DNA of 64,000 bases from a virus (IMGVR_UViG_3300045988_119557:1-64000), one strand, 5' to 3'; positions 5,381 to 35,510 are shown, counted from the stretch's first letter. Notes: a model not told the origin generated them from the sequence alone. Program-made: numbers and translations.

Positions 5381-5384
5381 AGTA

Positions 5385-6930: not shown

Positions 6931-8877
6931 ATGAAAGAGATTAAATTAAAAAAGTTAATTCTCCAAAATTGGAGAGGAAGAAATCTTGTTATTTCATTTA
7001 AATTAGATGGAGTAACCAACATTATGGGACGTAATAAAAGTGGTAAAAGCTCTTTGAAAGATGCTTTTTTGTGGTTAATGACAGGATTTGATTCAAGCAA
7101 TCGCGCAAATTACAATCTTTTTGACAACAACCATAATTATACAGCAGAAGATTCTCCTGTTGCATCTGTTGAAGCTCTTATTGCCATTGACGGGAATGAA
7201 TTTTATTTTAAAAAAGAAGCAAAAAAGGGATGGATAAGAAGAAGAGGAAATAAAGAATATGAATTAAAAGGATCTGATGATTACGTCTGCTATTTTGATG
7301 GAATCGAAGTATCAGCCGGAGAATACAAGAAGCGAGTTTCCGAATTATTGTGCGAGATAGAGCCATTAAAGGTTATGTTGAATACCGAATATTTCCTTAG
7401 TTTAGAATGGAAACAACAACGCGAAATGCTTTCTTTATTAGCCGGAGACATCCAGGAAAGTGACTTCAAATCCAATTACAGCGATTTATTTCTTCTTTTG
7501 AAAAAATACTCGATTGATGAATTGAAAGCGCAAGTCAAGACAAAGATAAGTCCGATGAAGCAGCAATTAAGTTCTTTCCCTTTAACAATACAGACACTTG
7601 AACAACATTTGCCTGATATATCTAATGTTTGCGAATTAGAAAAAGAAATAGGGGAATTGAAAAGCAAAATCGCAGAGATAGATAATGCAATATTATCAGC
7701 TTCAAAAATGGCCGAGCCTTATATTGAGATGAGGAACAAACAATTGCAAGAATTATCTAATATCAATTCGGAGATTAGAAATAAGAAAAATGACTTTGAA
7801 TATAATCAGAATGAAAAGCCGAACAAAATCAGGAGACAGATACAGGAAGCCAAAAAAGAAAACGAATATATTCAAAGACAATGGGATAAAACGCAAGAAG
7901 AAAGAAAGTCTAATGAAACTAAATTAGCTCGGTTAAAAGCAAAGGTAGAAGAACACGATGAATATCGCAAAAAGCTATTAATTGAAAAAGACGAGTTGTT
8001 AAAAAGGGAATTTAACAGCGAAAAATGCTCTTTCTGCGGACAAGATCTTCCTGAATCAATGCTTGAAGCAAATAAAAAAGATTTTTATGAAAAAAGAGAA
8101 AATGCAGTAAATGATATTATTAAAAAGGGAAAAGAAAACAATGAAAGGAAACAAGAAAAACTTGAAGAAATAGAACGCATAGAAGCTCTATTAGCTGAGG
8201 ATATTGAAAGTCCGATGTATATTGACATAGAGGATCTGAAAAAGGAACTGCAAGAAGCAGAGCAAGAGACTTTGAATTTTGAAGATTCTGATGAATATAA
8301 AAAGCTAAAAGATAAAGCTGATGCAATTCAAAATGGGTTAACAGAAGTCCCAGTAGTAGATAATACTAATCTGCTAAATATGAAAGAATCATTGACTCTG
8401 CAAATTGAAGAGAAAAGCCGCGCAATGGGACTTGTCGATGAAAGAGAAAGACAATTAAAAACAATTGCTTCTTTAAAAAGAGAAATGCGCGAAGTTGCCG
8501 ATAGCTTGGCCGTGCAAGAGCAAATAGAGGCAAATATTAAATCCTATGAAGAAGAGCGCGCCCAAATTGTTTCTAACAAAGTAAATAAATATTTTAGTAG
8601 ATGCAATATTTCTATGATGCAACAGGACAAGTCTGGGCAATGGATACCGAGCTGCACAATAACTGTATCTGATGGCAGTTTGGTGAGCACCTGCAATGGA
8701 GCTGAAAATATTTTAGTAGGACTTGATATTTCGAATGCTTTTGCTTCGTATTATGACATTAGCTTGCCTGTATTTGTAGATGATGTAAATCTTATAAATA
8801 GCGATGTAAATATCGAAACAAACCATCAACTTATTAAATTGGTAGTTAGCGAAGACGAAAACATTATTGTTCGTTAA
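6931..8877 (+). CDS. Rad50/SbcC-like SMC-type ATPase
   Basis: Walker A GRNKSGKSS at the N-terminus and a long E/K-rich coiled coil. A CxxC (CSFCGQ, nt 8026-8037) sits mid-coil like a zinc hook, with Walker B PVFVDDV at the C-terminus. Confidence 0.75.
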   Translation: MKEIKLKKLILQNWRGRNLVISFKLDGVTNIMGRNKSGKSSLKDAFLWLMTGFDSSNRANYNLFDNNHNYTAEDSPVASVEALIAIDGNEFYFKKEAKKGWIRRRGNKEYELKGSDDYVCYFDGIEVSAGEYKKRVSELLCEIEPLKVMLNTEYFLSLEWKQQREMLSLLAGDIQESDFKSNYSDLFLLLKKYSIDELKAQVKTKISPMKQQLSSFPLTIQTLEQHLPDISNVCELEKEIGELKSKIAEIDNAILSASKMAEPYIEMRNKQLQELSNINSEIRNKKNDFEYNQNEKPNKIRRQIQEAKKENEYIQRQWDKTQEERKSNETKLARLKAKVEEHDEYRKKLLIEKDELLKREFNSEKCSFCGQDLPESMLEANKKDFYEKRENAVNDIIKKGKENNERKQEKLEEIERIEALLAEDIESPMYIDIEDLKKELQEAEQETLNFEDSDEYKKLKDKADAIQNGLTEVPVVDNTNLLNMKESLTLQIEEKSRAMGLVDERERQLKTIASLKREMREVADSLAVQEQIEANIKSYEEERAQIVSNKVNKYFSRCNISMMQQDKSGQWIPSCTITVSDGSLVSTCNGAENILVGLDISNAFASYYDISLPVFVDDVNLINSDVNIETNHQLIKLVVSEDENIIVR

Positions 8878-17882: not shown

Positions 17883-18659
17883 ATGAAAATGGAAAAGTTG
17901 AATATGAACCTGTTTGTGGAAAAATCAAACAATGTACATTCCAATAAATATGATTACTCGAAAGTAAGCTATATAAACAATAAAACAAAAATTTGTATTA
18001 TATGCCCGATTCATGGAGAGTTTTTTCAGACACCGAACTCTCACATAACTGGTCATGGTTGTCCAAAGTGTAAATCATGTAATAATAAGAAACTTATTTT
18101 TGGGGTTGGTATAAATGATTTAAACGATTACATATTTTCTGACTATAAGTTATCAAAATGTTATACCGTTTGGCATAGTATGCTTAGGAGATGTTATTCA
18201 AGCGTATATCAAAAACATAAGAAAAGTTATATAGGATGTAGCGTTTGTAGTGAATGGTTGTTTTTATCTAACTTTTATAAATGGTTTAATGAAAACCACG
18301 TGGACGGTTTTGAGCTTGATAAAGATATTCTATTTAAGGGTAATAAAATTTATAGTCCACAAACATGTAGTTTTATCCCTCGGAGGATAAACTGCTTATT
18401 AGTGTCATGTAAATCTAAAAGGGGTATTTATCCGATAGGAGTTAAGAGAAATGGAAAATTATACGAATCTTCATGCAAAATCAATGGGAAAGATGTGTAT
18501 TTGGGATTGTTTAAAAATGCAAATGACGCTTTTTTAGCGTATAAAAAATTTAAAGAATCTTATATAAAGGAATTGGCTACAAGTTACTATAACAATGGTA
18601 ATATTACAAAAGAGGTATATAACGCTTTGTTAAAATACGAAGTAGAAATAAATGATTAA
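17883..18659 (+). CDS. AP2-domain endonuclease-like protein (homing-endonuclease-associated architecture)
   Basis: N-terminal Zn-ribbon-like module (KICIICPIHGEFFQTPNSHITGHGCPKC). C-terminal AP2-like GVKRNGKLYESSCKINGKDVYLGLFKNANDAFLAYKKF. Confidence 0.55.
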   Translation: MKMEKLNMNLFVEKSNNVHSNKYDYSKVSYINNKTKICIICPIHGEFFQTPNSHITGHGCPKCKSCNNKKLIFGVGINDLNDYIFSDYKLSKCYTVWHSMLRRCYSSVYQKHKKSYIGCSVCSEWLFLSNFYKWFNENHVDGFELDKDILFKGNKIYSPQTCSFIPRRINCLLVSCKSKRGIYPIGVKRNGKLYESSCKINGKDVYLGLFKNANDAFLAYKKFKESYIKELATSYYNNGNITKEVYNALLKYEVEIND

Positions 18660-19122
18660 TATGGAATTAAAAGCAAAGAGAATTTTCAAAGGTAGTTTGT
18701 ATACTATCAGCAAGTTATATGTAGATGGTGTTTACGAATGTGATGTGTTAGAGGATACCGATAGAGATCTTTCGGATAGCATGGATATATCAGAGATAAA
18801 GAAAGTGAAACAGTACGGAAAGACAGCTATTCCCACAGGAACGTATGCCATTGATATGGATACTGTCAGCCCTAAATTCAAAGATCGTGGGTGGGCAAAG
18901 GTGTGTAGCGGTAAACTACCTCGACTCAGAAATGTAAAGGGTTTCGATGGCGTATTAATCCACGTAGGAAATAAATCGGAGGATACATTAGGATGCTTAT
19001 TGACAGGATACAACAAAGTGAAGGGGCAAGTCGTAAACAGTACAGTCGCTTTCACTAAGTTATATGAAAAGATGAAAGAAGCGCATGAAAGAGGCGAATG
19101 TATTAACTTAACTATCGAATAA
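18652..19122 (+). CDS. DUF5675-like protein (possible cell-wall enzyme, YkuD-like HxnGC signature)
   Basis: YTISKLYVDGVYECDVLED...GKTAIPTGTY...GVLIHVGNKSEDTLGCLLTG. Confidence 0.5.
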   Translation: MINMELKAKRIFKGSLYTISKLYVDGVYECDVLEDTDRDLSDSMDISEIKKVKQYGKTAIPTGTYAIDMDTVSPKFKDRGWAKVCSGKLPRLRNVKGFDGVLIHVGNKSEDTLGCLLTGYNKVKGQVVNSTVAFTKLYEKMKEAHERGECINLTIE

Positions 19123-19342: not shown

Positions 19343-20065
19343 ATGAAAGAATTAGTATTTAAAGGAGAATCAAATCAAGTTTTAACGAACAGTCTGCTGG
19401 TGGCAGAAAAGTTTGGGAAAGAACACAAAAGAGTAATGCAGGATATAAGAGAATTAAAATGCAGTAATCAATTTAAACAGCACAATTTCGTGCTTTCCTC
19501 TTATAAGAGTGAACAGAATCGAGAATTGCCTATGTATGTGATGAATAAAGACGGATTTACTCTTTTAGTTATGGGATATACTGGTGAAATAGCTATGAAA
19601 TTTAAGGAGGAATACATTAAGGCTTTCAATGAAATGGAGGAGATTATAAAAAATGGAAGCTATTGTGTGCCTAAATCATTCCGTGAAGCTCTTTTACTTG
19701 CAGCCGAACAACAGGCTCAGATTGAACAACAGCAAATGCGTATTGAAGAGATGAAACCTAAAGAAGAGTTTTTTGATCAAGTAACAGATAGTAAGGACGC
19801 ATGTGATATGGCAACAGTGGCTAAAGTACTAAACATGGGAGTTGGTAGAAACAAACTATTTGAAATATTGAGAGATAAGAAAGTCCTCCAAGAGAGAAAC
19901 GCACCATACCAGTCTTACATAGATAGAGGATGGTTTAGAGTCATAGAAAGCAAATACACCAAGCCCAATGGAGACATGTGTGTAAACTACAAAACCATAG
20001 TTTATCAAAAAGGCATAGATGGTATCAGAAAGCTATTATCAGAACTAAAGAATGCCGGGGAGTAA
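19343..20065 (+). CDS. phage antirepressor (Rha-like N-terminus + ANT-like C-terminus)
   Basis: VLTNSLLVAEKFGKEHKRVMQDIREL (Rha-like) and C-terminal DMATVAKVLNMGVGRNKLFEILRDKKVL. ATG 19343 is preferred over the track start 19304. Confidence 0.7.
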   Translation: MKELVFKGESNQVLTNSLLVAEKFGKEHKRVMQDIRELKCSNQFKQHNFVLSSYKSEQNRELPMYVMNKDGFTLLVMGYTGEIAMKFKEEYIKAFNEMEEIIKNGSYCVPKSFREALLLAAEQQAQIEQQQMRIEEMKPKEEFFDQVTDSKDACDMATVAKVLNMGVGRNKLFEILRDKKVLQERNAPYQSYIDRGWFRVIESKYTKPNGDMCVNYKTIVYQKGIDGIRKLLSELKNAGE

Positions 20066-20071
20066 TACTCC

Positions 20072-20254
20072 CTATTCTTTTAATCTTTTTAATTCCTCAA
20101 TTCTAAACAGAAGAAAGCCTTTTATCTTCTCAAATTCAAACTGTGGCATTTCACACATTAATTGATTTATAACAGAGTCTATTTCATACTTCTTGCGTAA
20201 AATCGCAAGCTTTACAGAGTCATATTTTACCTTGTTTAGCTTCATGGATTTCAT
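20072..20254 (-). CDS. hypothetical protein
   Basis: Last ORF of the minus-strand island, convergent with 19343..20065. Confidence 0.4.
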   Translation of the reverse strand: MKSMKLNKVKYDSVKLAILRKKYEIDSVINQLMCEMPQFEFEKIKGFLLFRIEELKRLKE

Positions 20255-20432
20255 TTTTTAACAAGTTATTAATCTTTTCTTCTGTGAATCCGAATTTCCC
20301 GGCAAAAGATAGGAAATTCTTCTTATTCTTTATTGGTATTAATGAAAATAGTGAATTAATAGGAGTATCACTTTCAATGGCTTTTTTAATTTCTTTTTTA
20401 TTCATAATAATTGTTTTTTGTTTTTGCAACAA
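20220..20432 (-). CDS. hypothetical protein
   Basis: Overlaps both neighbours on the same strand. Confidence 0.4.
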   Translation of the reverse strand: MLQKQKTIIMNKKEIKKAIESDTPINSLFSLIPIKNKKNFLSFAGKFGFTEEKINNLLKNEIHEAKQGKI

Positions 20433-20824
20433 TCACATAAATATTTCTTTGCCGAATCCCATGTCTTATCTATGATGTAATCACCTAAATATTGTATTTC
20501 CTCGCCATGAGGGCTTATATCATAAGTAAGGCATATATGGTCTGCTAAGTGTCCTGATTCATGAGACCAAGTTTTTTCAAACTCTTTTGCACTGCTCGTT
20601 CTACCTATAACAATTACACTTTTATGCGCTAAGTGATTAGAAAATGTGAGTCCGTTATTATATCCACATGTAGTTAGATTTTTATAAGCTCTTTTAAGAG
20701 ACTCCTCTCCACATTCGATATATTCTAATTCCTCTATTACATCTTCAAAATATTTGCAAGTATAATCATAAAAGATAGTGACAGTCCAATCGTATTTATA
20801 TAAATATATTGTTTCTATTTCCAT
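20402..20824 (-). CDS. putative zinc metallopeptidase (HExxH)
   Basis: WSHESGHLADH contains HExxH plus a downstream His. About 140 aa with a Cys-rich C-terminus. Confidence 0.45.
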   Translation of the reverse strand: MEIETIYLYKYDWTVTIFYDYTCKYFEDVIEELEYIECGEESLKRAYKNLTTCGYNNGLTFSNHLAHKSVIVIGRTSSAKEFEKTWSHESGHLADHICLTYDISPHGEEIQYLGDYIIDKTWDSAKKYLCDCCKNKKQLL

Positions 20825-20858
20825 AATATTTAAAAAGGCACATTTTAAGTGCCTAAAA

Positions 20859-21269
20859 TTAAAGCATATCTTCCCAATTAATGGCTATTCCAAAACCATA
20901 CATGTCTGCTAAAAAGTGCCTAAAAGCTTTTTCTGTAGATGGATAATCAGGGTCATCAATATACGCTTTAATAAATTTAGCCAGCTGATCTTCGGAGCTT
21001 ATTACTGTACCCCAATAATCTGCTTTAGCCATGTGTAGAACATACAACCCATTATAACCATTATCTTTTTCAAGTTCAATGCCATACAGTTTAAGCAATT
21101 CATCATACTTTTCTTTCGGTATTGGTGTGATTTTCCCTTCTTTAGTTTTCATCATAGATACTGCAAAATCACACATTTTTTTAGAAAAGTTGAATCCATA
21201 ATTTTGTAGATAAATCCGCATATCTTCCGGGATATTATCATATAAATCAAAACTTGCTCCTTTTTTCAT
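20859..21269 (-). CDS. hypothetical protein
   Basis: Well-formed ORF in the island with no motif I recognise. Confidence 0.5.
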   Translation of the reverse strand: MKKGASFDLYDNIPEDMRIYLQNYGFNFSKKMCDFAVSMMKTKEGKITPIPKEKYDELLKLYGIELEKDNGYNGLYVLHMAKADYWGTVISSEDQLAKFIKAYIDDPDYPSTEKAFRHFLADMYGFGIAINWEDML

Positions 21270-21315
21270 ATCTTTTAGTATTAAAGGGGGACTATTATAT
21301 CCCCCTTAGTTTATA

Positions 21316-21588
21316 TTAGCGACGACGACCACGACCAGAGCCTCTTACACCTCTGCGCTCTCCCATCATTTCGTCATCATCGTATTCATCGTATCTATTC
21401 CCGTAAGAACCACCACGACTACCACCACCATAAGAACCGCCTTGTCCGCTACGTTCTCCCATTGATTCCATTTCGTCCCAAAGGGTTTCGAAATCTTCTT
21501 TTAGGCATTCAAGACTCTCTTTGAAGTCCTTAAAGGCTTTTCCTAATCCACCTTTTCTTTCGCCTTCCATTATTTCAATCATTCCCAT
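21316..21588 (-). CDS. Gly/Arg-rich acidic-basic low-complexity protein
   Basis: Helical acidic N-terminus, then GQGGSYGGGSRGGSYGNRYDEYDDDEMMGERRGVRGSGRGRRR. Confidence 0.5.
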   Translation of the reverse strand: MGMIEIMEGERKGGLGKAFKDFKESLECLKEDFETLWDEMESMGERSGQGGSYGGGSRGGSYGNRYDEYDDDEMMGERRGVRGSGRGRRR

Positions 21589-21595
21589 AATATTA

Positions 21596-22126
21596 TTATT
21601 TAGAATTTGTTGTTTTGGGTTTATTAGACGTATTCATTTCCATCAAAAGAGATTTTATATCTCCCAATCCATCTTTTACGGATTTAACCTCTTGCTCCAA
21701 TGAATTAATCCTATCTTCTTGTTGCTTTTCTTTGGCAAATTGAGGATTTAGTTCTTTTAAAATACTATCACAAGATTCTATAACAGATTTATGATATGGA
21801 ACGCTTTCTACAATTTGCTTACTGGTTTGCATCATTGCTTCAACTTCCGAAATGATAGCCTCTTTCTTTTCGGAAACAATCACATTTGGATAAGCAAAAA
21901 TTTCACCATTTGCTGGTAATTTTTGAAAGTCTAAAACTTCCTCGCCACATCTTACCTTAATGTCAATAAGCATTTCTGGTTGAGGACTATAAGGTACTGA
22001 CGGATTATAAGTAGGATATTTAGGGACAGGTGAACTTACAGATTCAATCTGTCCTATCTTAACAGTTGGTCTTTCTCCTTTAGAAAGAACATATATAAAA
22101 CCACCTTGTCTACTTGATGAAAACAT
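21596..22126 (-). CDS. hypothetical protein (Pro/Tyr-rich linker + coiled C-terminus)
   Basis: PVPKYPTYNPSVPYSPQP segment, with a C-terminal EQEVKSVKDGLGDIKSLL coil. Confidence 0.5.
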   Translation of the reverse strand: MFSSSRQGGFIYVLSKGERPTVKIGQIESVSSPVPKYPTYNPSVPYSPQPEMLIDIKVRCGEEVLDFQKLPANGEIFAYPNVIVSEKKEAIISEVEAMMQTSKQIVESVPYHKSVIESCDSILKELNPQFAKEKQQEDRINSLEQEVKSVKDGLGDIKSLLMEMNTSNKPKTTNSK

Positions 22127-22181
22127 ATAATAAACTTTTAATTTGTTTTACATAGACGGGGTTTTACTCCCGTCTATAGAT

Positions 22182-22691
22182 TCACTTACTTGTTGCTAAT
22201 GTAGGTGCAGGAGTTGTTCCGCCTGTCTGAAAATTGACAAAACGTATAATCCCCTCTCTTTTATTGATAAAAGCAAAGACCTCTTTTGAGTTTGTTATAT
22301 CAGAACCAATAACATTTGAGCTGTTATGATCTATAACATTTACTTTACTTTCACCATTATTAGAAGAAGAACTCCCTACATTTGTACTATTATTGGACGT
22401 TGGAATAGCAATCGTTACAGGCAATGCTTCACCACCTGTTGGAACTGCTTGATTAACTTGCACAGTCACATAACATTCACAAGGAAGCTGATTATACAGA
22501 CATTTGTCAATCCCATAGTCTACACTCGTCTCTGATAAGGCTACGTTTGTTGTCGGCAACTCAAATATACAGAGTTGTTTCAAACAAGAACGTTGTCTCG
22601 TAGGAATAGCTGGACCGGGACCACCTACCCACCAATACGTATCAAAAGGATTTAATGGATTTCCATACATAGATACCTCCTTTCTTAACAA
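22182..22691 (-). CDS. Cys-containing beta-rich hypothetical protein
   Basis: The start overlaps the stop of 22685..23656. Contains YGNPLNPFDTYWWVGGPGP, several Cys and a Ser/Asn-rich stretch. Confidence 0.5.
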   Translation of the reverse strand: MLRKEVSMYGNPLNPFDTYWWVGGPGPAIPTRQRSCLKQLCIFELPTTNVALSETSVDYGIDKCLYNQLPCECYVTVQVNQAVPTGGEALPVTIAIPTSNNSTNVGSSSSNNGESKVNVIDHNSSNVIGSDITNSKEVFAFINKREGIIRFVNFQTGGTTPAPTLATSK

Positions 22692-23656
22692 CCACAGTTA
22701 CTATAAGGTGATACACTCATATTAACTGGTACGCTATAGTTAACAGGTATATAGTTACCAGCAGCTGGGATATAAGGAATTGTTATCGTTTCAGGTTGTT
22801 TACATTCAATTTTAGCCAATCGAGCACTCAAATCATTTAAAGCTGCACCAAGAGGAGCCGTTGCCTGTCCGACGATCTGAGAGGTCATGGCAGAACTTTT
22901 AAATGTGCTATTCTCCTCACGAAGTTTATCAATCTTGTTCTGCATTTCGCGCATTTCAGCCGCACGCTGACCGGCAAGAATCTGCTGTGTGCTATCCTTG
23001 ATGGAATTTTGCAGATCACAAGTCTGACGTTGAGTTTCATATGCAACAGAAGCAAAGCCTCTTTCCTGACCAGTCGCAACGCCGTTAATGGCATTTTGCA
23101 ATGTGTTCGTTTGCTGACAGATCGCCAGACGGTTTTCGCAGCAGCATGAAGCAATCTGTTGAGCGATCTGACAGTTACCCTGCTGGATAGCATTGATAAT
23201 CTGCATTGAGCTTTGACCAACCTGATTCCCTACCTGTTGCACCTGTGACATCACTCCATTGATAGCATTCTGAACCTGACCGATTGAACAGTTTAAATTA
23301 GTAGCCAGATTGTTGATTGCCTGTCCGTTCCCCTGAATAGCACTCATTAGTAATTCCCTTCCTGCATCATTGTTAATCAAATTTGGAATACCAGCGACAC
23401 CATATCCGCCACCATTTCCACCATCGTTACCCCAACCATTACGACCGAAAAGAGGAAAAAGGAAGAACAAGAAGATAATCCATAAGAACCATGAGCCATC
23501 TCCGCCAAACCCGTTTCCATTTCCTTTGCTATTCAAAGCCATTAACAAGTTAGGGTCAATACCTTTCTGCTGCAAAAGTGGAGCAAGCATAGCCATCATT
23601 CCACTTCCGCTTCCACTCCCTACATCAGGAGTATAAACAACTGTTTTTGATTCCAT
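22685..23656 (-). CDS. membrane-anchored Gly-rich / Gln-Asn-rich coiled protein with Cys clusters
   Basis: GSGSGSG, a TM helix WFLWIIFLFFLFPLFG flanked by G/N-rich runs, and a repeated QNAINGV motif. Also CCC and terminal CGC. Visibly higher GC than its surroundings. Confidence 0.6.
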   Translation of the reverse strand: MESKTVVYTPDVGSGSGSGMMAMLAPLLQQKGIDPNLLMALNSKGNGNGFGGDGSWFLWIIFLFFLFPLFGRNGWGNDGGNGGGYGVAGIPNLINNDAGRELLMSAIQGNGQAINNLATNLNCSIGQVQNAINGVMSQVQQVGNQVGQSSMQIINAIQQGNCQIAQQIASCCCENRLAICQQTNTLQNAINGVATGQERGFASVAYETQRQTCDLQNSIKDSTQQILAGQRAAEMREMQNKIDKLREENSTFKSSAMTSQIVGQATAPLGAALNDLSARLAKIECKQPETITIPYIPAAGNYIPVNYSVPVNMSVSPYSNCGC

Positions 23657-23814
23657 AAAAAATACATTTAATATAGTCCGACATTGAACTATGTTCTGAA
23701 TAAACTAAAAATAATGGAATCAAAATACACAGTATTTTTATATTTTTCGAGCGTTGTGTTTCAGCGTGTTATGATATATTATAGAATATATTTGGAGGGT
23801 AGTGATAAAACCAT

Positions 23815-23822
23815 TACATTTG
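23815..23822 (+). promoter_or_regulatory. -7 promoter box (TAcaTTTG), with a second box TAtaTTTG at 23787-23794
   Basis: Exact TAnnTTTG matches upstream of ATG 23841. Confidence 0.45.
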
Positions 23823-23840
23823 TGCCATATATTTATCACT

Positions 23841-24182
23841 ATGACGCTAACAACAGAACAACAACATAAAGTCGATCAGATAGCCAACGAAGTCTATAAA
23901 TACTTCGGAGTTACAGAGCAAGATATAATTAATCATAATATGAAAGAAAAGCCTTCTACTGCTCGGTATTTTCTTTATTATATATTGCACTATAGCTTAG
24001 GCTTATCTTCGGCAACAATCGCGAATATGTACTTTAGAGCACCGCGATGTGTTAAACGTGGTGTTGCTAAAATAAAATTGGGAGTCGTAAGGCACAAGTA
24101 TTACAATGCTATTTACACCGACTTGATGGAAAGAATCCAGCCTTTGATTCCCGAAGATATTGATAGATTCTTAAACAAATAA
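23841..24182 (+). CDS. DnaA-C-terminal-like HTH protein (tentative)
   Basis: KPSTARYFLYYILHYSLGLSSATIANMYFRAPRCVKRGVAKIK follows the DnaA domain IV pattern (R..aR...Y...g.s...Ia..f.r....V....ki). ATG 23841 is preferred. Confidence 0.4.
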   Translation: MTLTTEQQHKVDQIANEVYKYFGVTEQDIINHNMKEKPSTARYFLYYILHYSLGLSSATIANMYFRAPRCVKRGVAKIKLGVVRHKYYNAIYTDLMERIQPLIPEDIDRFLNK

Positions 24183-24189
24183 TAAAACA

Positions 24190-24390
24190 ATGAACGATTT
24201 GAAAATTAACAAGGGAGTAATGACTTCGAGAGAGATTGCGGATCTGACGGGGAAGGAACACAAAAACGTAATGCAAGATATTAGAAATCTTGTTGCCCAA
24301 CTGCCAGAAAAAGATAGGCTGAATTTTCAGCTCACCTCTTATACAGATGCGAAAGGTGAGAAACGTCCTATGTATGAGCTAACAAATTAA
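24190..24390 (+). CDS. Rha-family N-terminal domain protein (stand-alone)
   Basis: VMTSREIADLTGKEHKNVMQDIRNL. Confidence 0.55.
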   Translation: MNDLKINKGVMTSREIADLTGKEHKNVMQDIRNLVAQLPEKDRLNFQLTSYTDAKGEKRPMYELTN

Positions 24391-24404
24391 CTAAAAAAAG
24401 ACAT

Positions 24405-25154
24405 ATGAAAAATAGAATTAAAATTTTCGAGAACGCAGAGTTCGGGAAGGTTAGAGTTAATACAGTGAACAATGAACCAATGTTCTGCCTAAGTGATGTA
24501 TGTAGGGTGTTAGGATTAACGCAACCATCAAAAGTAAAAGAAAGATTAAATGAAAAGGGTGTGAATACTATTCCTACCCTTACCTCAGGAGGCACACAAG
24601 AACTTTTGTATATTAACGAAAGTAATCTTTATAAAACAATCTTTCAGAGTCGAAAGGAATGCGCAGAACGTTTTTCCGATTGGGTAACTTCGGAAGTCCT
24701 TCCGTCCATTAGAAAGAATGGAGGATATATCATGGAGAAACAAGATGAAACGCCCGAAGAGCTTATGGCGCGTGCGTTAATGATTGCACAAGAAACCTTA
24801 AAGCGCAAGGAGCAAAGGCTGCTCGAAGCTGAGACCAAAATCAAAGAGAATGCTCCAAAGGTTGAATACTTCAATGGGCTTGTCGAGAGAGGGAATAATC
24901 TTAATTTTCGTGATACAGCGAAGCTACTTGGGGTTAAAGAAAAAACTTTCATTTATATTTTTATTGATAAAGGGTATGTCTATCGTGATGCAAAAGGAAA
25001 ACTAAAACCGATAGCCAAATATGTAGGCAAATACTTTGAGTTGAAGGAATGGGTCACCAATGATAAATCTGGAACGCAAACTCTTATTACGGTGACAGGA
25101 AGAGAAAAGTTCGCCAGCATACTTAAGGAATACATTTCAGAGAGTTTTAATTGA
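24405..25154 (+). CDS. phage antirepressor (Bro-N + KilAC)
   Basis: FENAEFGKVRVNTVNNEPMFCLSDVCRVLGL (Bro-N). The C-terminus NFRDTAKLLGVKEKTF...KPIAKYVGKYFELKEW is paralogous to 3240..3938. Confidence 0.8.
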   Translation: MKNRIKIFENAEFGKVRVNTVNNEPMFCLSDVCRVLGLTQPSKVKERLNEKGVNTIPTLTSGGTQELLYINESNLYKTIFQSRKECAERFSDWVTSEVLPSIRKNGGYIMEKQDETPEELMARALMIAQETLKRKEQRLLEAETKIKENAPKVEYFNGLVERGNNLNFRDTAKLLGVKEKTFIYIFIDKGYVYRDAKGKLKPIAKYVGKYFELKEWVTNDKSGTQTLITVTGREKFASILKEYISESFN

Positions 25155-25180: not shown

Positions 25181-25558
25181 ATGAAAAAGAACATTCTATT
25201 TTTAGTATTAGCATTAATGCTTGCATTTTCTTCTTGTTCTAAAGGAGAAGATAGTCATAACGATTTTCTTCTTGAAAACACAACATGGTTGTGCATCGAG
25301 AATCAAATCACCATGCAATTTACTTCTGCAAAAGATGTAAAAGTCGAATCAGATTTATGGGCTGACCGCTATGGAACTTATATTCAAAACGAAAAGTCTA
25401 TTAAATTCTTTGATCTATGGGCATTAATATCAATCACTCCTTATGATTTCAAATCTGCTACCTTGTCAGACTACGGAACAAATATGAAGGTAAAATGCGT
25501 AGATAAAAATAATGGAGAAGAAAAAGAGTTAACTTTTGTGAAAGAAGTAGCTAAGTAA
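25181..25558 (+). CDS. lipoprotein (moron-like)
   Basis: Signal peptide plus lipobox MKKNILFLVLALMLAFSSC, followed by its own terminator. Confidence 0.7.
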   Translation: MKKNILFLVLALMLAFSSCSKGEDSHNDFLLENTTWLCIENQITMQFTSAKDVKVESDLWADRYGTYIQNEKSIKFFDLWALISITPYDFKSATLSDYGTNMKVKCVDKNNGEEKELTFVKEVAK

Positions 25559-25663: not shown

Positions 25664-25702
25664 ATCCCCAAGAGTATGTGAATATTCTTGGGGATGTTTT
25701 TT
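25664..25702 (+). terminator. Rho-independent terminator between convergent genes
   Basis: ATCCCCAAGA (25664-25673) pairs perfectly with TCTTGGGGAT (25686-25695), followed by GTTTTTT. Confidence 0.75.
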
Positions 25703-28700
25703 ATAGTACAGTTTTTATGCTATATCCTCCAACCGAATTATTTCCTCCGGCTGTAATAACACTTTCCAATTTGCTATTTATATCTCTTAATACTCTTGTT
25801 TGTGCGACTAATTCTCCTAATAATGGATTAGCCTCAACATCAAAGCTACCGATAGCAGAAAGCGTTTTTAATTGTACGTTTGAATCAGCTACAAAGAATC
25901 GCATGGAGTTTAAAAGTGCTTCAAGAGCTTGCGCTGTTTCTTCTGTAATACCTTTTATACCTGCATTCAAACCAGATAGCTCTTGATTGTTGCCTCCTGG
26001 CAAAACACCTAAGTTTTCTACGATGGATTTATACAATGCGTCTAAAGCTCCTTTGGTATCCGTATTAAATTTATCCATGATTCCAGAAAGTTCATCCTTA
26101 GTTAAGATGCTATCTTTAACTGCTTCGTCAATCATTCCCAATAGGGGTTTTAATATGGTCTCAGTTCCTCTAAACAACAATTGCTTTTTAACAACATTAT
26201 CCATAAAGTCTTGGAATGTAGTTTCCAACCCTTTCATTCCATCCCCTGTTTCTTTGAAGGCTTCATACCAAGCATTAGCAAATTCTTGTGCGGCAGATTT
26301 AAAGTTTTCTTCCGTTCCGAATCCTCCCATTTCCGCTAAAGCTTCTTCTTTTAATTGCAATTGCAGATCGTGTAGCTTTTCAATTTCTCCTTGCCATTCC
26401 TTTATTCGGTTCTTGTCGGTTTTCTTTTTCGCATCTTCGGCAGCTATCATTTGTTCGTATGCCTTTATTTGGGCTTTTACGTTTTCTTGGGCAAGCCTAT
26501 TTGATTCTTGAAATGTGTCTACAGAATAAGCCGCCTCTATTGACTTTTCAAGCTTTTTATATGCCTTATCCAGATTCTCTATCTTTTCTATTTCTCTCTG
26601 TATTTGACGCTCCTTCTTTTTGTCGCCAATATTAAAGAAAGCTCCAATTGTTTTTGCCAAACCAGTAATACCTTGTAGGTATCCGCCAATATCAGCAGGA
26701 TTTACCATGACTCTCGCGACACCCGATGCTGTATCTCCGACACCCGATAATATTTCTTGGAGAGAACCGATTGAGTCAGCAGCCTTAGCATCCATCTTGC
26801 CAAAGACATTTTCCATTGAAGTAGCTACATCAGATATAGTTTGTCCTACTTCATCGGCATATCTACCGATTAATAATAATACAGCTTGAAGTTTATCTTT
26901 TAATGTTTCGCCATATTTTATTTGCTTTATTAAGGCTTTTACAACTTCTCCTTGACTTTTCACATTGTTATTTGCAATGTCCAATGCTTGCTGTGCAATC
27001 CTTAAATTTTCCTTAGCTAAATTAGCTTCTTTAGAATTAAGGCCATATTTTTTAACCGCAACATCATATTGCTTTTGAGCAGAAAGAACATTATTTTCTG
27101 CTAATGTTTGCTGTTGTTTATATTGCTCTAATGTTTTGGATTCATCTGTATATTCAGCCTCTAAATTCTTTTTTTCTTTTAAGTAGCCGATATACTCTTT
27201 TATATTAGGCAATAGATCCTTAAACGGATTTCGCTTCTCTATTTGTTCGTCAATCTTTTGCATTTGAGAAGTTATCTCCTTTAATTCGGTTGGAGACAAA
27301 TCTTTTAAAGACTCTTTCAACGAAATCAATTTAGCTTTCATCTGCTCTAATACGGAAGAAGATACTCTATCAAGATCTTCAAACATCGTAATATAAAGAT
27401 CGCTTTCTTTGAATTCAGCAAAAGATTGCTTATCTAACTTCTGCCTTGTTTCTTTCTGTATGTTCTTTTTAATCTGTTCCTTCTGAGGTTTTGTAAATTC
27501 AGAAGGAATTTCCGCTATCTTCTTCTGCGCTTCAAGCTCAATCTTGATACGCTCCGACATGGATTTTTTTAGATATTGAGAATAATCCTTTAAACGTTCT
27601 TCCAAGGAGGCTTTTTCTGCGGCAGTTATTTTGTCCGACGCTTCGTTGTATGCTTTTAATTGCTCCTCGCTCAATGCCTCTATGTCTGGGTATAGAGATT
27701 TCAATTTAGCCTTAATATCATCAAGCGTAAATGTATCTATCCCAAATAACTGACTAATTAAGTCTTTATCAAGACCCAATTTCCCTAATTCAACAGTTAA
27801 TTCATAACCAGTGAAAAGCCCCTCTATTTCTTTTCTTGTCCTTTCTACATCTTTAGCTCTCACGTCTATTTCCACATCACCCCTAAGATCAGAAATTGCT
27901 TTTTCAAGTGTCAAGCGCATTTTGGGAGAAACAGAAGACATAAGCGATTCTAACCCTGCTATAATTCCGCTTGGATCAAAATTCATCGTTGTAATCAAAT
28001 TCCCTAATCCAGCTTCTTTAAAAGAATCCGTATAGTCTTTGCGAGTTTTCTCTAAAGCCGCAGCTTTATTATAATATTTTAGATTTTTCTGATATTCTTG
28101 ACCTACTTTCTTTAAAAGATCTATTTGTTGTTGTAACGTTTTATTTCTTTCATTTTCTCCTTTATTCGATTTAGGCATTTCACCAAATGCTGTCAATATC
28201 TGAGTAAGCTGCTTAACTCTCTCTTTATTGTATTTAAGAGCTTCTTCATTGGTCATCGAAGCATTTAACTGCTCTGTTGCTACATTTAATTTTTCTACAT
28301 TAGATTGCGAGTCTTTCAGTTCGGCTTTTAGCTTATCAAAATAATCTTTAGTTCCTTGATCTGGTTTTATAATATCAAGTTCAAGCTTATGATCTTCTAC
28401 ATATTTTTTAAGTCGAGCTTGCATCCCTTGATATTGATTTATAATAGGTTTAGATGCTATTTCTACTCCAAACTTAACTGTAAACTCCTGAGATACAAAT
28501 TTTTTTGTTTCCTCGTCAGCTATATTTAAAGAATTAATATAATCCCTAAGAGTTTCTTGTGCCGCTTTTCTCCCCTCTTCTGTAGCAATATTATAAGTCT
28601 TCTTAAAATCCGTAGCAAGTTTCTTTATATCTTCCGACATTTCAGTTCTTGTTTTAGTTAACTTGCTTAAAGCTTTATCGTAATCATTGAAATCAGAAGA

Positions 28701-31316
28701 ATAAGGACGCATTAATTCTCTCAATCCTCCACCACCAGTAGCAGCAGTTTTTCTACCGAGGACATCTAATGCTTTTAATTTTTCAACGGCTGTTCCTGCA
28801 CTATTTTGTATTGCAACAATCTGCTGTCGGACATCAGGGTCTAAATTTTTAGCTGTTTGAAGAAAAACATTAAGTTTTCCATTTGCATCAAGCCAAATAT
28901 TACCCATACTATTAGCTTGTTTATTATATTCGGCTTGAAGTTCCGATAACTCTGCTGCCCTTTCAATCATTCCTGTACTAAACCAAGATTCTTGCCTCTT
29001 TGCTAACCAATTTAAATAATTAGTTTGTTCTAACTTCTTATTAAACTCCTCTTGTGCTTTAGTCAAATCTACAGTACCATCTTTCTGTGTAATAATACTA
29101 TTATATACTGTCGGATGATTAATTCTCAATTCTTCTAACAAGGCATTTCGTTTTGCCGAAGATTCGTTGTTTTCTTTTTGAGCATCTGTGTATTCTTTAG
29201 TCCCTTCTTTAAACTGCTGCATTGCAGAAGCAGATTCTTTTATTTTTGCATTATATTCCTTAATTTTAGATGAGATAGAATCTATTTCATTCTTTTGTCT
29301 TGCTAAAGAATTTGTTAATATGTCATATTTAGCTTTTGCTTCTTCAACCTTACTGTTGTATTCTGTAGCTGCATATATTGCCGTAGCAATACCAGTTGCC
29401 AAAAGTAAATAAGGATTGCCTTTTGCAAAAGATAATAAGTTTTTAAGCCCTGTAACTGTTCCTCCGATAGCCTTGTTAACTCTTCCTGAATTGGCGATTA
29501 TTTCTCCCTGTGATGCCGCGAAAGCCTTATTAGCGATGGTAGCTAAAACTATTTTTCCAGTATATAAAACGAACCCAGTTGCTACGGATTTTAATAAAAC
29601 TGCAAAAACTTCCCAACTCTCTACAATGCCTCGAACAATCGCAACCAAATCTTTTAGAACACCGTCATTAGCTTTTCCAATCTCGTTAAACATAACATCG
29701 AAGCTATCTTGGAGGTTGGAAATTTGACCTTGCAAAGTTTCAGCTTGTATTTCTTGCATATTATAGAAGATTCCTCCGGCAGAAGTTATCCTCTTAAATA
29801 CTTCTTCGACATCCTCAAAGGCAACCATTCTATTAGATACCATATCGAAGACTTCTCCAACAGATACCATTCGTCCTTCTAATTCAGTGAAATATGTTGC
29901 CAATTCACCTAATATATTAATACCAGCTTCACTAAACTGTCTTAATTCCGTTCCACGTAGATAATTAGCTGCCTTAACTTGACCAAAGGCTAAAATCAAG
30001 CGATCCATTTCAACACCCAAGCCGCTTGATATATCAGCAAGCATTTTTGTTGTATCGTACAGTTTTTCTGTTTCGATACGATATGCTGCTAATTGCTTTG
30101 TATATGTAACCAATTCCTTAACTCTATATGGAGACCTAACAGCCAATTCGACAACTTGATTAAATAATTGGTCAGCTTGATCTTTGTTTTGAAGAATAGC
30201 TTGTAATGCGCGGTTCTGCAATTCAAATTCCCCTCGCACCTGTACTAATTTACCAATATACCCTTCAATTGCGGCCACACTGAAAAGAAGACCTAACTTA
30301 CGCTCCAATTGTGCAGAAGTATCGAGTATGCGACTTTGATTTTTCTTCAAATTGTTCATGCTGTTTGCTGTAGCATCATTAACCGCATTTAGTCTTTGGG
30401 TTTCAGCAGTTATTCTCTGTAATTGAGTCGTATAATTTCTGCCAGTAGCATTTAACTGTTCTTGGGCGCTTCTTAATTTGGCTAATTTATTAATACGTTG
30501 GGCGATGGTACCCTCAGATGCAGCCATAGCTCTATTATAAGCTTGCATGGCTTGTGCAGCTTGCTGATCTGATTTCCTATTTTGTTCTCTATTAAGTTTT
30601 TCTTGTGCTTTAGCTAATTTCTCTGCTTCTGCCGCAGCCTTCTCTTCAGCTTGCGCCATTTTATAAGCCTTCTCAAAAGCTGCATCCATCATCTTCTGTT
30701 GCTGTTGTAAAGCCGAACTTCCTGTTTTGAATGAAGAATTTAATTGGTCTAATGCAATAGAGGCGTTACCGATTGTTTTTTTGTAATTTTCCCAAGAAGC
30801 GGCTGTAGCAAGAATGCTTCTTCTTTCTTGCTCTAATACAGCTAATTCAGCTTGAATTTGAGGAGTAAGTGATTTCCCTGCTGAGGCTTCTTTCATTGTA
30901 GAACCACTGATAAATCCGCCTCCCTTATTCTTCAAATTAGCAATTTGAGAATCTAATTTAGATACTGCCGAAGTCGAATCATTTAACAAGTTTTTTAGCG
31001 ATTCTATTTTTTTATTGATAACATCGACGGGAGATTGGGACACTCTATTTAGTTGCTCTGCCACATTAGCCACACTTTTAGCTACTTTTTCTGTGCCAGA
31101 TGTATCAAGCTTAGGCATCAAATCTTTAATGCCTTTATTCGCTGTTTTTAATTGTTGTAATAATGGGTTAAGACCATCGGCCATTTCTTGAAAAGCCGAC
31201 TTCATTAGCTTTTTAGTGTTCTCACTCGTTTTAGCTAATGTCTCTATTTTCTTATCTGTTTGATCCAGTTGCTTTAATACATTTTCTGGTATCTCTAAAA
31301 TATATCCTTCTGCCAT
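25701..31316 (-). CDS. tail tape measure protein
   Basis: 1871 aa and A/K/E/Q-rich coiled-coil throughout. It lies immediately downstream of the G/G-T chaperone pair, with hydrophobic central segments. Confidence 0.85.
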   Translation of the reverse strand: MAEGYILEIPENVLKQLDQTDKKIETLAKTSENTKKLMKSAFQEMADGLNPLLQQLKTANKGIKDLMPKLDTSGTEKVAKSVANVAEQLNRVSQSPVDVINKKIESLKNLLNDSTSAVSKLDSQIANLKNKGGGFISGSTMKEASAGKSLTPQIQAELAVLEQERRSILATAASWENYKKTIGNASIALDQLNSSFKTGSSALQQQQKMMDAAFEKAYKMAQAEEKAAAEAEKLAKAQEKLNREQNRKSDQQAAQAMQAYNRAMAASEGTIAQRINKLAKLRSAQEQLNATGRNYTTQLQRITAETQRLNAVNDATANSMNNLKKNQSRILDTSAQLERKLGLLFSVAAIEGYIGKLVQVRGEFELQNRALQAILQNKDQADQLFNQVVELAVRSPYRVKELVTYTKQLAAYRIETEKLYDTTKMLADISSGLGVEMDRLILAFGQVKAANYLRGTELRQFSEAGINILGELATYFTELEGRMVSVGEVFDMVSNRMVAFEDVEEVFKRITSAGGIFYNMQEIQAETLQGQISNLQDSFDVMFNEIGKANDGVLKDLVAIVRGIVESWEVFAVLLKSVATGFVLYTGKIVLATIANKAFAASQGEIIANSGRVNKAIGGTVTGLKNLLSFAKGNPYLLLATGIATAIYAATEYNSKVEEAKAKYDILTNSLARQKNEIDSISSKIKEYNAKIKESASAMQQFKEGTKEYTDAQKENNESSAKRNALLEELRINHPTVYNSIITQKDGTVDLTKAQEEFNKKLEQTNYLNWLAKRQESWFSTGMIERAAELSELQAEYNKQANSMGNIWLDANGKLNVFLQTAKNLDPDVRQQIVAIQNSAGTAVEKLKALDVLGRKTAATGGGGLRELMRPYSSDFNDYDKALSKLTKTRTEMSEDIKKLATDFKKTYNIATEEGRKAAQETLRDYINSLNIADEETKKFVSQEFTVKFGVEIASKPIINQYQGMQARLKKYVEDHKLELDIIKPDQGTKDYFDKLKAELKDSQSNVEKLNVATEQLNASMTNEEALKYNKERVKQLTQILTAFGEMPKSNKGENERNKTLQQQIDLLKKVGQEYQKNLKYYNKAAALEKTRKDYTDSFKEAGLGNLITTMNFDPSGIIAGLESLMSSVSPKMRLTLEKAISDLRGDVEIDVRAKDVERTRKEIEGLFTGYELTVELGKLGLDKDLISQLFGIDTFTLDDIKAKLKSLYPDIEALSEEQLKAYNEASDKITAAEKASLEERLKDYSQYLKKSMSERIKIELEAQKKIAEIPSEFTKPQKEQIKKNIQKETRQKLDKQSFAEFKESDLYITMFEDLDRVSSSVLEQMKAKLISLKESLKDLSPTELKEITSQMQKIDEQIEKRNPFKDLLPNIKEYIGYLKEKKNLEAEYTDESKTLEQYKQQQTLAENNVLSAQKQYDVAVKKYGLNSKEANLAKENLRIAQQALDIANNNVKSQGEVVKALIKQIKYGETLKDKLQAVLLLIGRYADEVGQTISDVATSMENVFGKMDAKAADSIGSLQEILSGVGDTASGVARVMVNPADIGGYLQGITGLAKTIGAFFNIGDKKKERQIQREIEKIENLDKAYKKLEKSIEAAYSVDTFQESNRLAQENVKAQIKAYEQMIAAEDAKKKTDKNRIKEWQGEIEKLHDLQLQLKEEALAEMGGFGTEENFKSAAQEFANAWYEAFKETGDGMKGLETTFQDFMDNVVKKQLLFRGTETILKPLLGMIDEAVKDSILTKDELSGIMDKFNTDTKGALDALYKSIVENLGVLPGGNNQELSGLNAGIKGITEETAQALEALLNSMRFFVADSNVQLKTLSAIGSFDVEANPLLGELVAQTRVLRDINSKLESVITAGGNNSVGGYSIKTVL

Positions 31317-34337: not shown

Positions 34338-35510
34338 TTAATTCGCTACTGTTGTGTCAACAATGACATGGTACGGGAACTCGTTCAATGACGGAACAGC
34401 CGACATAATCAAATCGGTATGCCATTCTTTATACATTCCATTAGGTACAGTTGTATTTACCAATGTATAAATACCACCTTCCATCTGAGCGAATGATTTA
34501 GTAATGGAATTATTACCGTATTTTTCAAACATTACTACGTCCAAAATATCAGTATACTGAATTTCCCCAGCAAATCCCGCAGGGCGTAGAACAGCAGCTT
34601 TCGAATCCCATCCATTAACAAACTTACCAGTCATATTATCCCAACTGATGTCCTTTTGTTTTTCAACAACAATCTCAATTGGAGACAAATCGGGATAATT
34701 AGCATAAACAACACTGTTGAAGATTTCCTCAGTAACAGGCATTGAGTCCAAGAAAACCTTATCATTTAGCGTATAGTATTGTTTCACCAGCTCGCGAACT
34801 TCTTTGTTCTTCAAAACGACATCCATATACATCTTATACGGAATCTGCCATTTCATTGGGCCATTATAACCTTTTGTATCGCGGAAGTCAACCTCAATAG
34901 TACGCATTTGGCTAAGCAAATTACAATCTGCGGCAGTCCAAACCTTAGCACCTGCTTTCTTGAAGTTTTCTGCCGGGATTTCTGCTTTCTGCAAAGCGCC
35001 CTTCATTCCACGTCCAAAATTATAAGAACACTGACCTTTTGAAATAAGCTGTGCGCCCAAATTAGTTAAGGTCTGGTCAGCAGCGTCGATCTGCATCTGA
35101 ACATCGTCCATCCATTCGCTAATCAAGAAAGCGTCATTCCCGAATTGAGCAAAAAGACGTTCTTTGTATTCACGCTGCGGAGCAGTTTCTACAATACCAG
35201 GAGCAATAAAATCAGGGATAGTAGCGGAATACCAAGAAATTCCCTTGTAATCCAAAGGTACAGAATCGCCAAGGGGTGCACGCATATCCATCATTGGAGT
35301 TGCGGTTCTGTCTTTAGCCTGTACTGTAAAGGTTGCAGTACCATCAGCTGCTACGGGGGTAGCATTGCTGGCTTTCGTAAATTGGGTTTTCCACCATCCG
35401 TAATTTGTGCGAAGCAAACCCGATTCGTCAATCAAAGAGCGCAAAAAACGCACATCAGAATCAGTCCACAAACGAGCATATCTATTATTATTAAAATCAA
35501 ACTTTGGCAT
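34338..35510 (-). CDS. major capsid protein (lambda gpE-like placement)
   Basis: 390 aa in the order scaffold, 240-aa protein, then this ORF, which mirrors the scaffold-decoration-capsid arrangement. Confidence 0.6.
   Translation of the reverse strand: MPKFDFNNNRYARLWTDSDVRFLRSLIDESGLLRTNYGWWKTQFTKASNATPVAADGTATFTVQAKDRTATPMMDMRAPLGDSVPLDYKGISWYSATIPDFIAPGIVETAPQREYKERLFAQFGNDAFLISEWMDDVQMQIDAADQTLTNLGAQLISKGQCSYNFGRGMKGALQKAEIPAENFKKAGAKVWTAADCNLLSQMRTIEVDFRDTKGYNGPMKWQIPYKMYMDVVLKNKEVRELVKQYYTLNDKVFLDSMPVTEEIFNSVVYANYPDLSPIEIVVEKQKDISWDNMTGKFVNGWDSKAAVLRPAGFAGEIQYTDILDVVMFEKYGNNSITKSFAQMEGGIYTLVNTTVPNGMYKEWHTDLIMSAVPSLNEFPYHVIVDTTVAN

Follow-up and report, generated by a model that had tools for sequence, protein, structure and literature searches.

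The viral DNA IMGVR_UViG_3300045988_119557:1-64000 (64,000 nucleotides (nt); "the window" below is this whole stretch) carries at positions 20072-23656 an island filled by eight open reading frames (ORFs), all on the minus strand, as an earlier note made from the sequence alone had described. Comparison with other genomes strongly supports that seven of these genes, g1 to g7, make up one copy of an accessory cassette that spreads horizontally among Bacteroidales phages, and that all seven are under purifying selection. We tentatively interpret this cassette as a late, envelope-level exit or exclusion device that would act at the membrane of the infected cell.

We gathered cassette loci from INPHARED, IMG/VR, GTDB genomes, ENA/Logan contigs and PLSDB and then clustered their ORFs. 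In this survey of synteny among related genomes, the order of g1-g7 was conserved across 113 loci (103 distinct neighbourhoods), often headed by a small helix-turn-helix (HTH) gene: a protein of ~320 amino acids (aa) with a transmembrane (TM) segment and a helical region, a variable beta protein, a protein with a beta domain and a coiled coil, a charged RGG protein, a DUF7841 protein, an HExxH zincin and a protein of ~55 aa. The genes had been taken for orphans, which does not hold: the g1 family alone has at least 6,937 significant matches among 8,000 candidates scored in a protein collection clustered at 90%, g1, g3 and g5 belong to PHROG families 16490, 28898 and 38431 (function not assigned in any), and g5 belongs to a Pfam family. 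Identical copies of each of the eight window proteins are present in public assemblies, usually on contigs of 78-86 kb; the contigs with exact copies number in the hundreds, and close variants of g3 and g4 lie on up to 623 and up to 942 contigs, respectively. Only the eighth gene, g8, is restricted to the window's own phage lineage, where it was found at three loci, outside the conserved cassette. In public records the cassette proteins appear under the name 'hypothetical protein', with one spurious 'RaiA'.

The carriers include temperate siphophages of Bacteroides and Phocaeicola with an integrase, the window's own phage type (~82 kb, with a 1,871-aa tape-measure protein), SU10-like podophages of Prevotella-type hosts, in which the cassette follows a giant polyvalent protein, and Crassvirales such as cr271_1 and cr116_1. 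All named GTDB hosts are Bacteroidales; the few other labels belong to phage-size contigs of metagenome-assembled genomes and are probably mis-binned. Among the phages in the collection, only Bacteroides phage C3_41T2LP (B. uniformis) is a cultured carrier; its g1 was deposited as 'outer capsid protein/viral fiber' and its g6 as 'PolyVal metallopeptidase'. A literature search found no paper on the cassette, on DUF7841 or on C3_41T2LP, and no virion proteomics turned up for any carrier phage.

That the cassette is accessory follows from one exact spot, empty in PhiCrAss001 and filled in cr116_1. PhiCrAss001, with the order holin, gp29, gp30 (L,D-carboxypeptidase), gp31 and gp32 (major capsid protein, MCP), has no detectable cassette homologue, whereas cr116_1 carries an excisionase-like HTH gene, a 115-aa zincin gene, g1-g4 and g6 exactly between its gp30 and gp31 homologues. 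IAS virus has at this spot an HTH gene and one hybrid zincin gene only. Paralogous small zincin genes (5255-5602 and 7835-8230) flank g1-g4 in cr116_1 (L089), the IAS virus hybrid lies at ~6214-6711 (L126), and from these sequences it looks as if recombination between the zincin paralogues deleted g1-g4 in IAS virus. Moreover, HNH-type homing endonuclease genes lie inside cassettes at g1/g2 or g5/g6, and homologues of the window's HNH gene (17883-18659) and of a second HNH family occur within the cassettes of other phages; insertions at such differing junctions mark the cassette as a recurrent homing target. PLSDB returned one episomal phage and two records of ~2.3 kb. The former is L124 (NZ_CP103284.1, 61.9 kb circular, deposited as 'plasmid unnamed1' of B. 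thetaiotaomicron BFG-119), a temperate phage in episomal form that carries a holin, GH108, the cassette and an integrase; in view of this record, one of the three, a non-phage mobile element was dropped as a candidate.

Alone among the island proteins, g1 has a TM-grade segment. The motifs listed for this 323-aa protein in the earlier note were all verified (GSGSGSG at residue 13, QNAINGV at 129 and 187, CCC at 171, a terminal CGC), as were its single hydrophobic helix (~55-72, Kyte-Doolittle 19-residue mean 1.71) and the Gly/Asn runs on both sides of it; the overall composition is 11.5% G, 9.9% N and 9.6% Q. Across the family, the N-terminal ~50 aa are conserved (LAPLLQxKGxDPNxL) and the helix (F-W-IFLFFL), set inside uncharged Gly/Asn linkers, is nearly invariant. 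The rest consists of a helical region of ~155 aa that is rich in Q and N and contains further conserved cysteines besides an invariant CCC, and of a variable C-terminal tail of ~30 aa, in the window of the Cys type (...NCGC). The helical region had been described as a long Gln/Asn-rich coil; its hydrophobic periodicity of 3.62-3.66 residues, seen in 16 of 16 diverse homologues and above shuffles in most, is not that of a classical heptad coil. A PDB sequence search with g1 yielded only sub-threshold matches to coronavirus S2 HR1 (E 0.008-0.04; best E 0.0083 for the single sequence and 0.035 for the profile, over ~40 residues only), a resemblance that explains the public 'spike' labels and is no evidence of homology. 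An internal g1 duplication of ~58 aa was considered and dropped (local alignment 36 vs a shuffle mean of 30.5, standard deviation 5.6), the repeat within g1 being limited to an 8-residue motif; assignment of g1 topology by the positive-inside rule was also dropped, since lysine and arginine are equally frequent on either side of the helix.

The g1 tail and g2 vary together. Tails are either Cys-rich (...CGC) or of a Trp type (...GFWG), g2 is either a long Cys-bearing form or a short form of ~114 aa, and the two types agree in 50/55 distinct pairs. Between loci L010 and L043, identity is 0.98 over g1 residues 1-290, falls to 0.23 in the g1 tail, 0.20 in g2 and 0.43 in g3, and is 0.92, 0.98 and 0.91 in g4, g5 and g6; in other locus pairs the g1 tail and g2 are kept together while g3 differs. 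The fastest-evolving cassette member is g2, with a ratio of non-synonymous to synonymous substitution rates (dN/dS) of 0.36-0.48 vs 0.02-0.25 for g1 and g3-g6 (close and distant homologues). Joint exchange of the g1 tail and g2, together with the fast evolution of g2, suggests a stalk plus an exchangeable head, and from these sequence patterns we infer that the g1 tail probably docks onto g2 and that the specificity of the complex resides in this unit. Fusion representatives join g1 fragments to g2, a DUF7841-RGG protein to g2, and g2 to the zincin; some of these fusion proteins may be assembly or gene-calling artefacts.

The g2 protein has five cysteines and is modelled as a beta-sandwich (predicted local distance difference test, pLDDT, 73). 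A Foldseek search of the PDB with this model found no neighbour (best E 0.7), and in BFVD it matched its own family first, followed at E 0.008-0.2 by tail-fibre, collagen-like and adhesin-stalk proteins, in each case through their distal or C-terminal domains. The start of g2 had been thought to overlap the stop of g1, which needs a TTG at 22691. In homologues, g2 begins 15-18 nt beyond the g1 stop; this favours the ATG at 22670 and makes the overlap a probable artefact.

Three further features that had been pointed out, the PxY-rich linker, the RGG/acidic tail of the 90-aa protein and the HExxH motif of the 140-aa protein, are all present, in g3, g4 and g6. In g3, an N-terminal beta domain with a Pro/Tyr-rich loop (the PxY-rich linker PVPKYPTYNPSVPYSPQP) is followed by a C-terminal heptad coiled coil with a periodicity of 3.45 and a conserved LNPxFAKEK motif; the coil weakly matches paramyxovirus F HRB and P22 gp26, and the match of g3 to phrog_473 ('virion structural protein') is restricted to it. 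The disordered tail of g4 is of mixed charge, RGG-, Asp/Glu- and Arg-rich, with repeated MGER motifs. Membership of g5 in Pfam DUF7841 (PF25223) is clear (76 bits, cut-off 25.2), and a broad database search with g5 returned stand-alone DUF7841 proteins only, with no informative fusions. By its sequence, g6 is a generic zincin (HExxH plus a third ligand): in 22 diverse zincin sequences, H88, E89 and H92 of its HESGH motif are invariant, and E108, the putative third-ligand Glu ~16 residues after HExxH, is at least 90% conserved. Its C-terminus is Cys-rich (CDCCKNK). Comparisons of g6 with PF18818, PF06114 and SprT-like families stayed below thresholds (best E 0.003-0.04, in 1-6 of 22 members), and a PDB search with it gave no significant match. 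The ATG of g7 overlaps the TGA of g6 (ATGA), which suggests translational coupling. Signal peptides and lipoboxes are absent from g2-g8, and g1 has no lipobox.

When all eight proteins were scanned against Pfam, NCBIfam, PADLOC and PHROG, nothing useful came back but DUF7841 and PHROGs with no assigned function, and PDB sequence and profile searches with g1, g2, g3, g5 and g6 gave sub-threshold coiled-coil or chance matches only. No component was significant in PADLOC-DB v2 (ZorA tails E 0.007-0.04 and SduA E 0.064, at coiled-coil level), the cassette proteins matched no holin family in Pfam, NCBIfam or PHROG, and there was no significant heptad-repeat homology to class I fusion glycoproteins, the g1 values above being the best. 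The island had been described as a coherent module without a recognisable standard phage function, and with no assignment from Pfam, NCBIfam, PADLOC or the PDB this description is borne out; remote-homology searches gave no confident homology to known structural or lysis proteins.

We then counted the seven genes upstream of g1 in the 103 distinct neighbourhoods. A small HTH gene was present in 72 (56 Bac_DnaA_C-like, 16 HTH_17/excisionase-like), in most relatives co-oriented with g1 and directly upstream of it; a separate lipoprotein gene in 69 (47 with a lipobox and a C-terminal TM, 22 DUF6808); and a Phage_holin_4_1 holin gene in 23, relatives encoding either this holin or other small multi-TM proteins. 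Endolysins of the Amidase_3, GH108, DUF5675 and M15 types were frequent, and in cr116_1 the order runs holin, L,D-carboxypeptidase, cassette. Downstream of the cassette lie integrases in 17 neighbourhoods and Ant genes in 16. The cassette thus forms the very last part of the late region, adjoining a complete lysis set. The link to lysis suspected in the earlier note gains support from these upstream holin, endolysin and lipoprotein genes, but its comparison with spanins is unlikely to apply: a complete lysis set beside the cassette argues against g1 as a spanin, relatives already carry a lipobox/TM or DUF6808 lipoprotein (the window has a DUF6808 gene at 61217-61771), and g2, like the other partners, has neither the lipobox nor the signal peptide of a spanin lipoprotein.

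Some observations concern these neighbouring genes themselves. The window lacks a co-oriented HTH gene; its own is divergent and was rejected as an orthologue of the usual upstream HTH, with no BLASTP similarity. The family of ~130 aa with a lipobox and a C-terminal TM (L030:8961-9368; a 131-aa gene in L002) has u-spanin architecture and no Pfam or NCBIfam match and, judged by its sequence, could be the spanin that has gone unannotated in many temperate phages of Bacteroides. The BV01 papers, in their accessible text, mention a 'holin-lysin-spanin operon' and do not state there the identity of the genes. In temperate relatives, the DUF6808 lipoprotein gene lies between the lysis genes and the cassette; in the window it is on the minus strand and adjoins an IS-type transposase gene (61780-63000, minus strand; phrog_506, 2e-130).

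At eight loci of recoded phages, in-frame stops fall within well-aligned regions of the cassette genes (TAG in six loci, often opposite Gln; TGA in two, in some cases opposite Trp), at a density that resembles that of the adjacent tail-fibre, scaffold-like and MCP genes. Recoded stops have been reported to be concentrated in late genes, and on this basis the cassette is probably expressed late; an early form of the anti-defence role that had been proposed fits poorly with such stops. The Bacteroides -7 box TAnnTTTG is found 44-81 nt upstream of g1 in 57/95 distinct upstream regions from several lineages, the window having a near-match only. Cassette relatives in recoded genomes are L096, L102, L105-L107, L114 and L115 (TAG) and L099 and L120 (TGA). 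In L114, a reverse transcriptase gene lies beside that of a 597-aa tail protein whose C-terminus looks, from the sequence, like the target of a diversity-generating retroelement.

In the mechanism that we propose, g1 would insert in the membrane and form a long helical stalk, whose last ~30 residues would dock g2 as a small beta-sandwich 'head'. Tail and head, often with g3, are swapped as a unit between otherwise near-identical cassettes and would probably set specificity, while g4 (charged, disordered), g5, g6 (a predicted zincin peptidase) and g7 would be soluble helpers, perhaps in regulation, maturation or chaperoning. As the cycle ends, the complex would stand in the membrane of the infected cell beside holin, endolysin and spanin, not replacing them. 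It would serve the exit phase and, with its variable recognition head, might for example block superinfection or wasteful re-adsorption, or tune release; exclusion, a role already raised in the earlier note, thus keeps its place among the candidates. We favour action at the cell membrane because siphophages, podophages and crassviruses have no platform in common other than the host membrane, and the N-terminus and helix of g1 are near-invariant among them.

Several points weigh against this interpretation. No cassette protein has significant homology to any characterised protein. The 20-residue flanks of the g1 helix do not differ in K/R (0.87 vs 0.87), leaving no positive-inside bias, and the AlphaFold2 monomer model of g1 is poor (pLDDT 42). 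With no signal peptides in g2-g7, a periplasmic stalk would meet its partners only after the holin has acted, or else the stalk would be cytoplasmic. Part of the association between tail and g2 types could come from shared ancestry, and the modelled g2 fold weakly matches fibre tips. Late timing is deduced solely from the recoded stops and gene position; exclusion systems are normally early or prophage-expressed, whereas recoding suggests late translation.

A close rival, though by itself somewhat unlikely, is that g1-g3 instead assemble in the cytoplasm into a fibre or penetration device (a stalk with a distal knob) on or in the virion, with the hydrophobic segment as a fusion or insertion peptide for the membrane of the next host, g3 in a fibritin-like role and g5-g7 as chaperones or a maturation protease. 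The late-gene signature would suit such a device, as would the position of the cassette between tail-fibre and scaffold/MCP genes in recoded crAss-like contigs. Like T-even gp37/gp38-type fibres, head fibres and fibritin, the cassette combines a conserved N-terminal body with a C-terminal tip that is block-exchanged together with the downstream gene, as in receptor-binding proteins, and has a fast-evolving head and helical or coiled-coil partners. The g1 helix is Gly/Phe/Trp-rich, a fusion-peptide-like composition, and it lacks the positive-inside signal that a bacterial membrane protein inserted during translation would usually have; all g1 partners lack signal peptides. In BFVD, the g2 fold comes closest to the distal domains of tail fibres, and the g3 coil matches phrog_473 and, weakly, P22 gp26 and paramyxovirus F HRB, but these matches, of fold or of PHROG family, are either weak or limited to the coil. 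Unlike those fibres, moreover, g1 has a genuine hydrophobic membrane helix, and its N-terminus and helix are near-invariant across unrelated virion types (siphophages, podophages, crassviruses) that have no common docking site. The PhiCrAss001 lineage dispenses with the cassette, which in temperate phages follows the lysis genes beside int/att, outside the morphogenesis block. Class I fusion proteins (S2 HR1, paramyxovirus F HRB) likewise have a Gly/Phe/Trp-rich hydrophobic segment followed by a Q/N-rich helical region, a resemblance that accounts for the names 'spike protein/glycoprotein' and 'outer capsid protein/viral fiber' in public records; it is limited to low-complexity helices (E 0.005-0.04) and gives no evidence of homology.

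A lysis component is an unlikely reading. Here g1 would be spanin-, fusogen- or class-III-holin-like and would disrupt the envelope or time lysis (antiholin, lysis inhibition), with the soluble partners as regulators. The tight linkage to holin, endolysin and spanin-like genes and the late-gene signature fit this role, and the architecture of g1 presumably recalls Rz-type i-spanins and the T4 T holin; the sub-threshold similarities of g1 to coronavirus S2 HR1 and of g3 to paramyxovirus F HRB point the same way. As in spanins (lambda Rz/Rz1, T1 gp11), g1 would be tethered to the membrane and bears a long helical domain with cysteines, and its cassette adjoins holin and endolysin genes and is apparently late; unlike them, it is about twice the length of an i-spanin, has a periodicity of 3.65 vs a heptad, and has six soluble partners, none of them a lipoprotein and none with a lipobox or signal peptide. 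Many relatives have a complete lysis set beside the cassette, including a separate protein with a lipobox and a C-terminal TM, while related phages manage without the cassette; there is no holin or spanin family match, and lysis gives no reason for an exchangeable, fast-evolving head.

Decidedly unlikely is a moron-type system expressed from the prophage for defence, abortive infection or superinfection exclusion, in which g1 would be a membrane sensor, the zincin the effector and the HTH protein the regulator. Like morons (lambda bor, lom), the cassette in temperate phages is inserted optionally where the late region ends, near att, with its own promoter-like box (the TAnnTTTG box upstream of g1), a terminator closing the island and a slightly different composition. 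Its sporadic, mobile distribution, its variable component g2 and the weak ZorA-tail matches would agree with defence, as would the HTH plus zincin pair that survives alone in IAS virus. This pair also resembles the HTH pairing of ImmA/IrrE (M78), and g6, with HExxH and a downstream Glu within ~130 aa, resembles ImmA/IrrE, SprT-like and MPTase-PolyVal proteins; g6 is nevertheless below all Pfam thresholds, and the HTH is DnaA-domain-IV- or excisionase-like, not Xre-type. Against a prophage role, no PADLOC family is significant, the window has no co-oriented HTH gene, and the cassette comprises seven co-evolving genes, where a moron has one. It is also present in Crassvirales and recoded phages, in which lysogenic expression is implausible and translation before the code switch would truncate every protein.

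Very improbable, finally, is that the products are packaged with polyvalent proteins and ejected with the DNA, the zincin processing the cargo (as has been proposed for the MPTase domains of polyvalent proteins) and g1 serving as a conduit that we take to be comparable to the phiX174 H pilot protein: all SU10-like/Prevotella-type cassettes directly follow a giant polyvalent protein (>2,200 to 5,588 aa; domains ddrB-ParB, AAA_34, Helicase_C_4 and LPD38), g6 of C3_41T2LP bears its PolyVal label, g4 has an Arg-rich tail and g1 has ~320 aa, an N-terminal hydrophobic helix, a Q/N-rich composition and a non-heptad 3.65 periodicity, but only 1/22 zincin sequences touches PF18818 (E 0.039), most carriers lack an adjacent polyvalent protein, no sequence similarity to solved structures, pilot proteins included, was found, and the variable head is left unexplained.

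On no defining feature tested does the cassette match a known system. It is an undescribed module, as had been suspected in the earlier note.

Coordinates of the island genes, hairpins and adjoining features in the window.
Feature	Position	Strand	Description
g1	22685..23656	-	323 aa; phrog_16490, 2e-43
g2	22182..22670	-	162 aa from ATG at 22670; 169 aa if TTG at 22691
g3	21596..22126	-	176 aa; phrog_28898, 3e-29; phrog_473 on coil only
g4	21316..21588	-	90 aa; helical N-terminus and charged disordered tail
G+C-rich hairpin, g4/g5 gap	21284..21307		may be an internal processing or attenuation site
g5	20859..21269	-	136 aa; DUF7841, PF25223, 3.5e-21
Terminator-like G+C-rich hairpin, g5/g6 gap	20836..20854	-	T-run on coding strand; may be an internal attenuation or processing site
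g6	20402..20824	-	140 aa; predicted minimal zincin, HExxH
g7	20220..20405	-	61 aa; conserved small protein
g8	20072..20254	-	60 aa; lineage-restricted
Hairpin between g8 and convergent Ant gene	20057..20073		shared by both genes; likely bidirectional terminator closing the island
AT-rich spacer 5' of g1	23657..23840	-	145-184 nt; probably holds the g1 promoter
Small DnaA-domain-IV-like HTH gene	23841..24182	+	divergent from g1
DUF5675 protein	18652..19122	+	homologue of PhiCrAss001/cr116_1 gp30 'L,D-carboxypeptidase/transpeptidase'; ~1 kb from the island, opposite strand; probably the endolysin of the window phage
HNH homing-endonuclease gene	17883-18659	+	phrog_953, 1e-71

The coding region of g1 is indeed more GC-rich than the window, as had been remarked (0.43-0.46 over 22750-23650 vs 0.347). 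By codon position, g1 has a GC content of 0.50 (GC1), 0.43 (GC2) and 0.37 (GC3), the last matching the GC3 of 0.376 in a 390-aa ORF at 34338-35510 (putative capsid gene). The excess lies mainly at GC1 and GC2 and comes from Gly, Ala, Gln and Arg codons; with an ordinary GC3, composition alone is no proof of foreign origin, and an argument for such origin from GC alone was dropped. The flanking genes had been called antirepressor paralogues, a description that holds for their KilAC similarity but not beyond it: they share 28% identity over 93 aa, the common part being the KilAC region only, and 24190-25154 is not one gene but two ORFs in different frames. The window has at least five Ant/Bro/KilAC-type genes (3240-3938, 19343-20065, 24405-25154, 59673-60431 and 60449-60814), and a 66-aa Rha-type N-terminal fragment lies at 24190-24390. 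A small predicted lipoprotein (LAFSSC lipobox; 25181-25558, plus strand) is encoded between the tape-measure gene and the antirepressor, with no family match and a presence at four loci only. The window also encodes a giant protein of 2,708 aa (44429-52555, plus strand), ~21 kb from the island, and the tape-measure-like protein of 1,871 aa (25701-31316, minus strand).

The human gut virome is dominated by Bacteroidales phages, the crAss-like ones among them, and for most of their genes no function is known. As accessory gene sets of these gut phages go, the cassette is one of the more widespread, and its abundance, its spread over virion types, its invasion by homing genes and its swapped specificity module are typical of systems that decide the outcome of phage-host or phage-phage encounters. 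It is experimentally tractable, through C3_41T2LP on B. uniformis and through the episomal prophage of BFG-119, a genetically amenable host, and even a negative outcome would clear the misleading labels 'spike glycoprotein', 'viral fiber' and 'RaiA'. Possibly, though short of an even chance, the cassette is a portable phage machine with a membrane-inserting helical stalk, an exchangeable recognition head and its own zincin for maturation or regulation, which would represent a new class of exit, exclusion or penetration apparatus. If our provisional reading is right, phages of very different build would carry such a machine behind their lysis genes to act on the Bacteroidales envelope at exit or entry, and it could be counted neither among holins, spanins or fibres nor among known defence systems.

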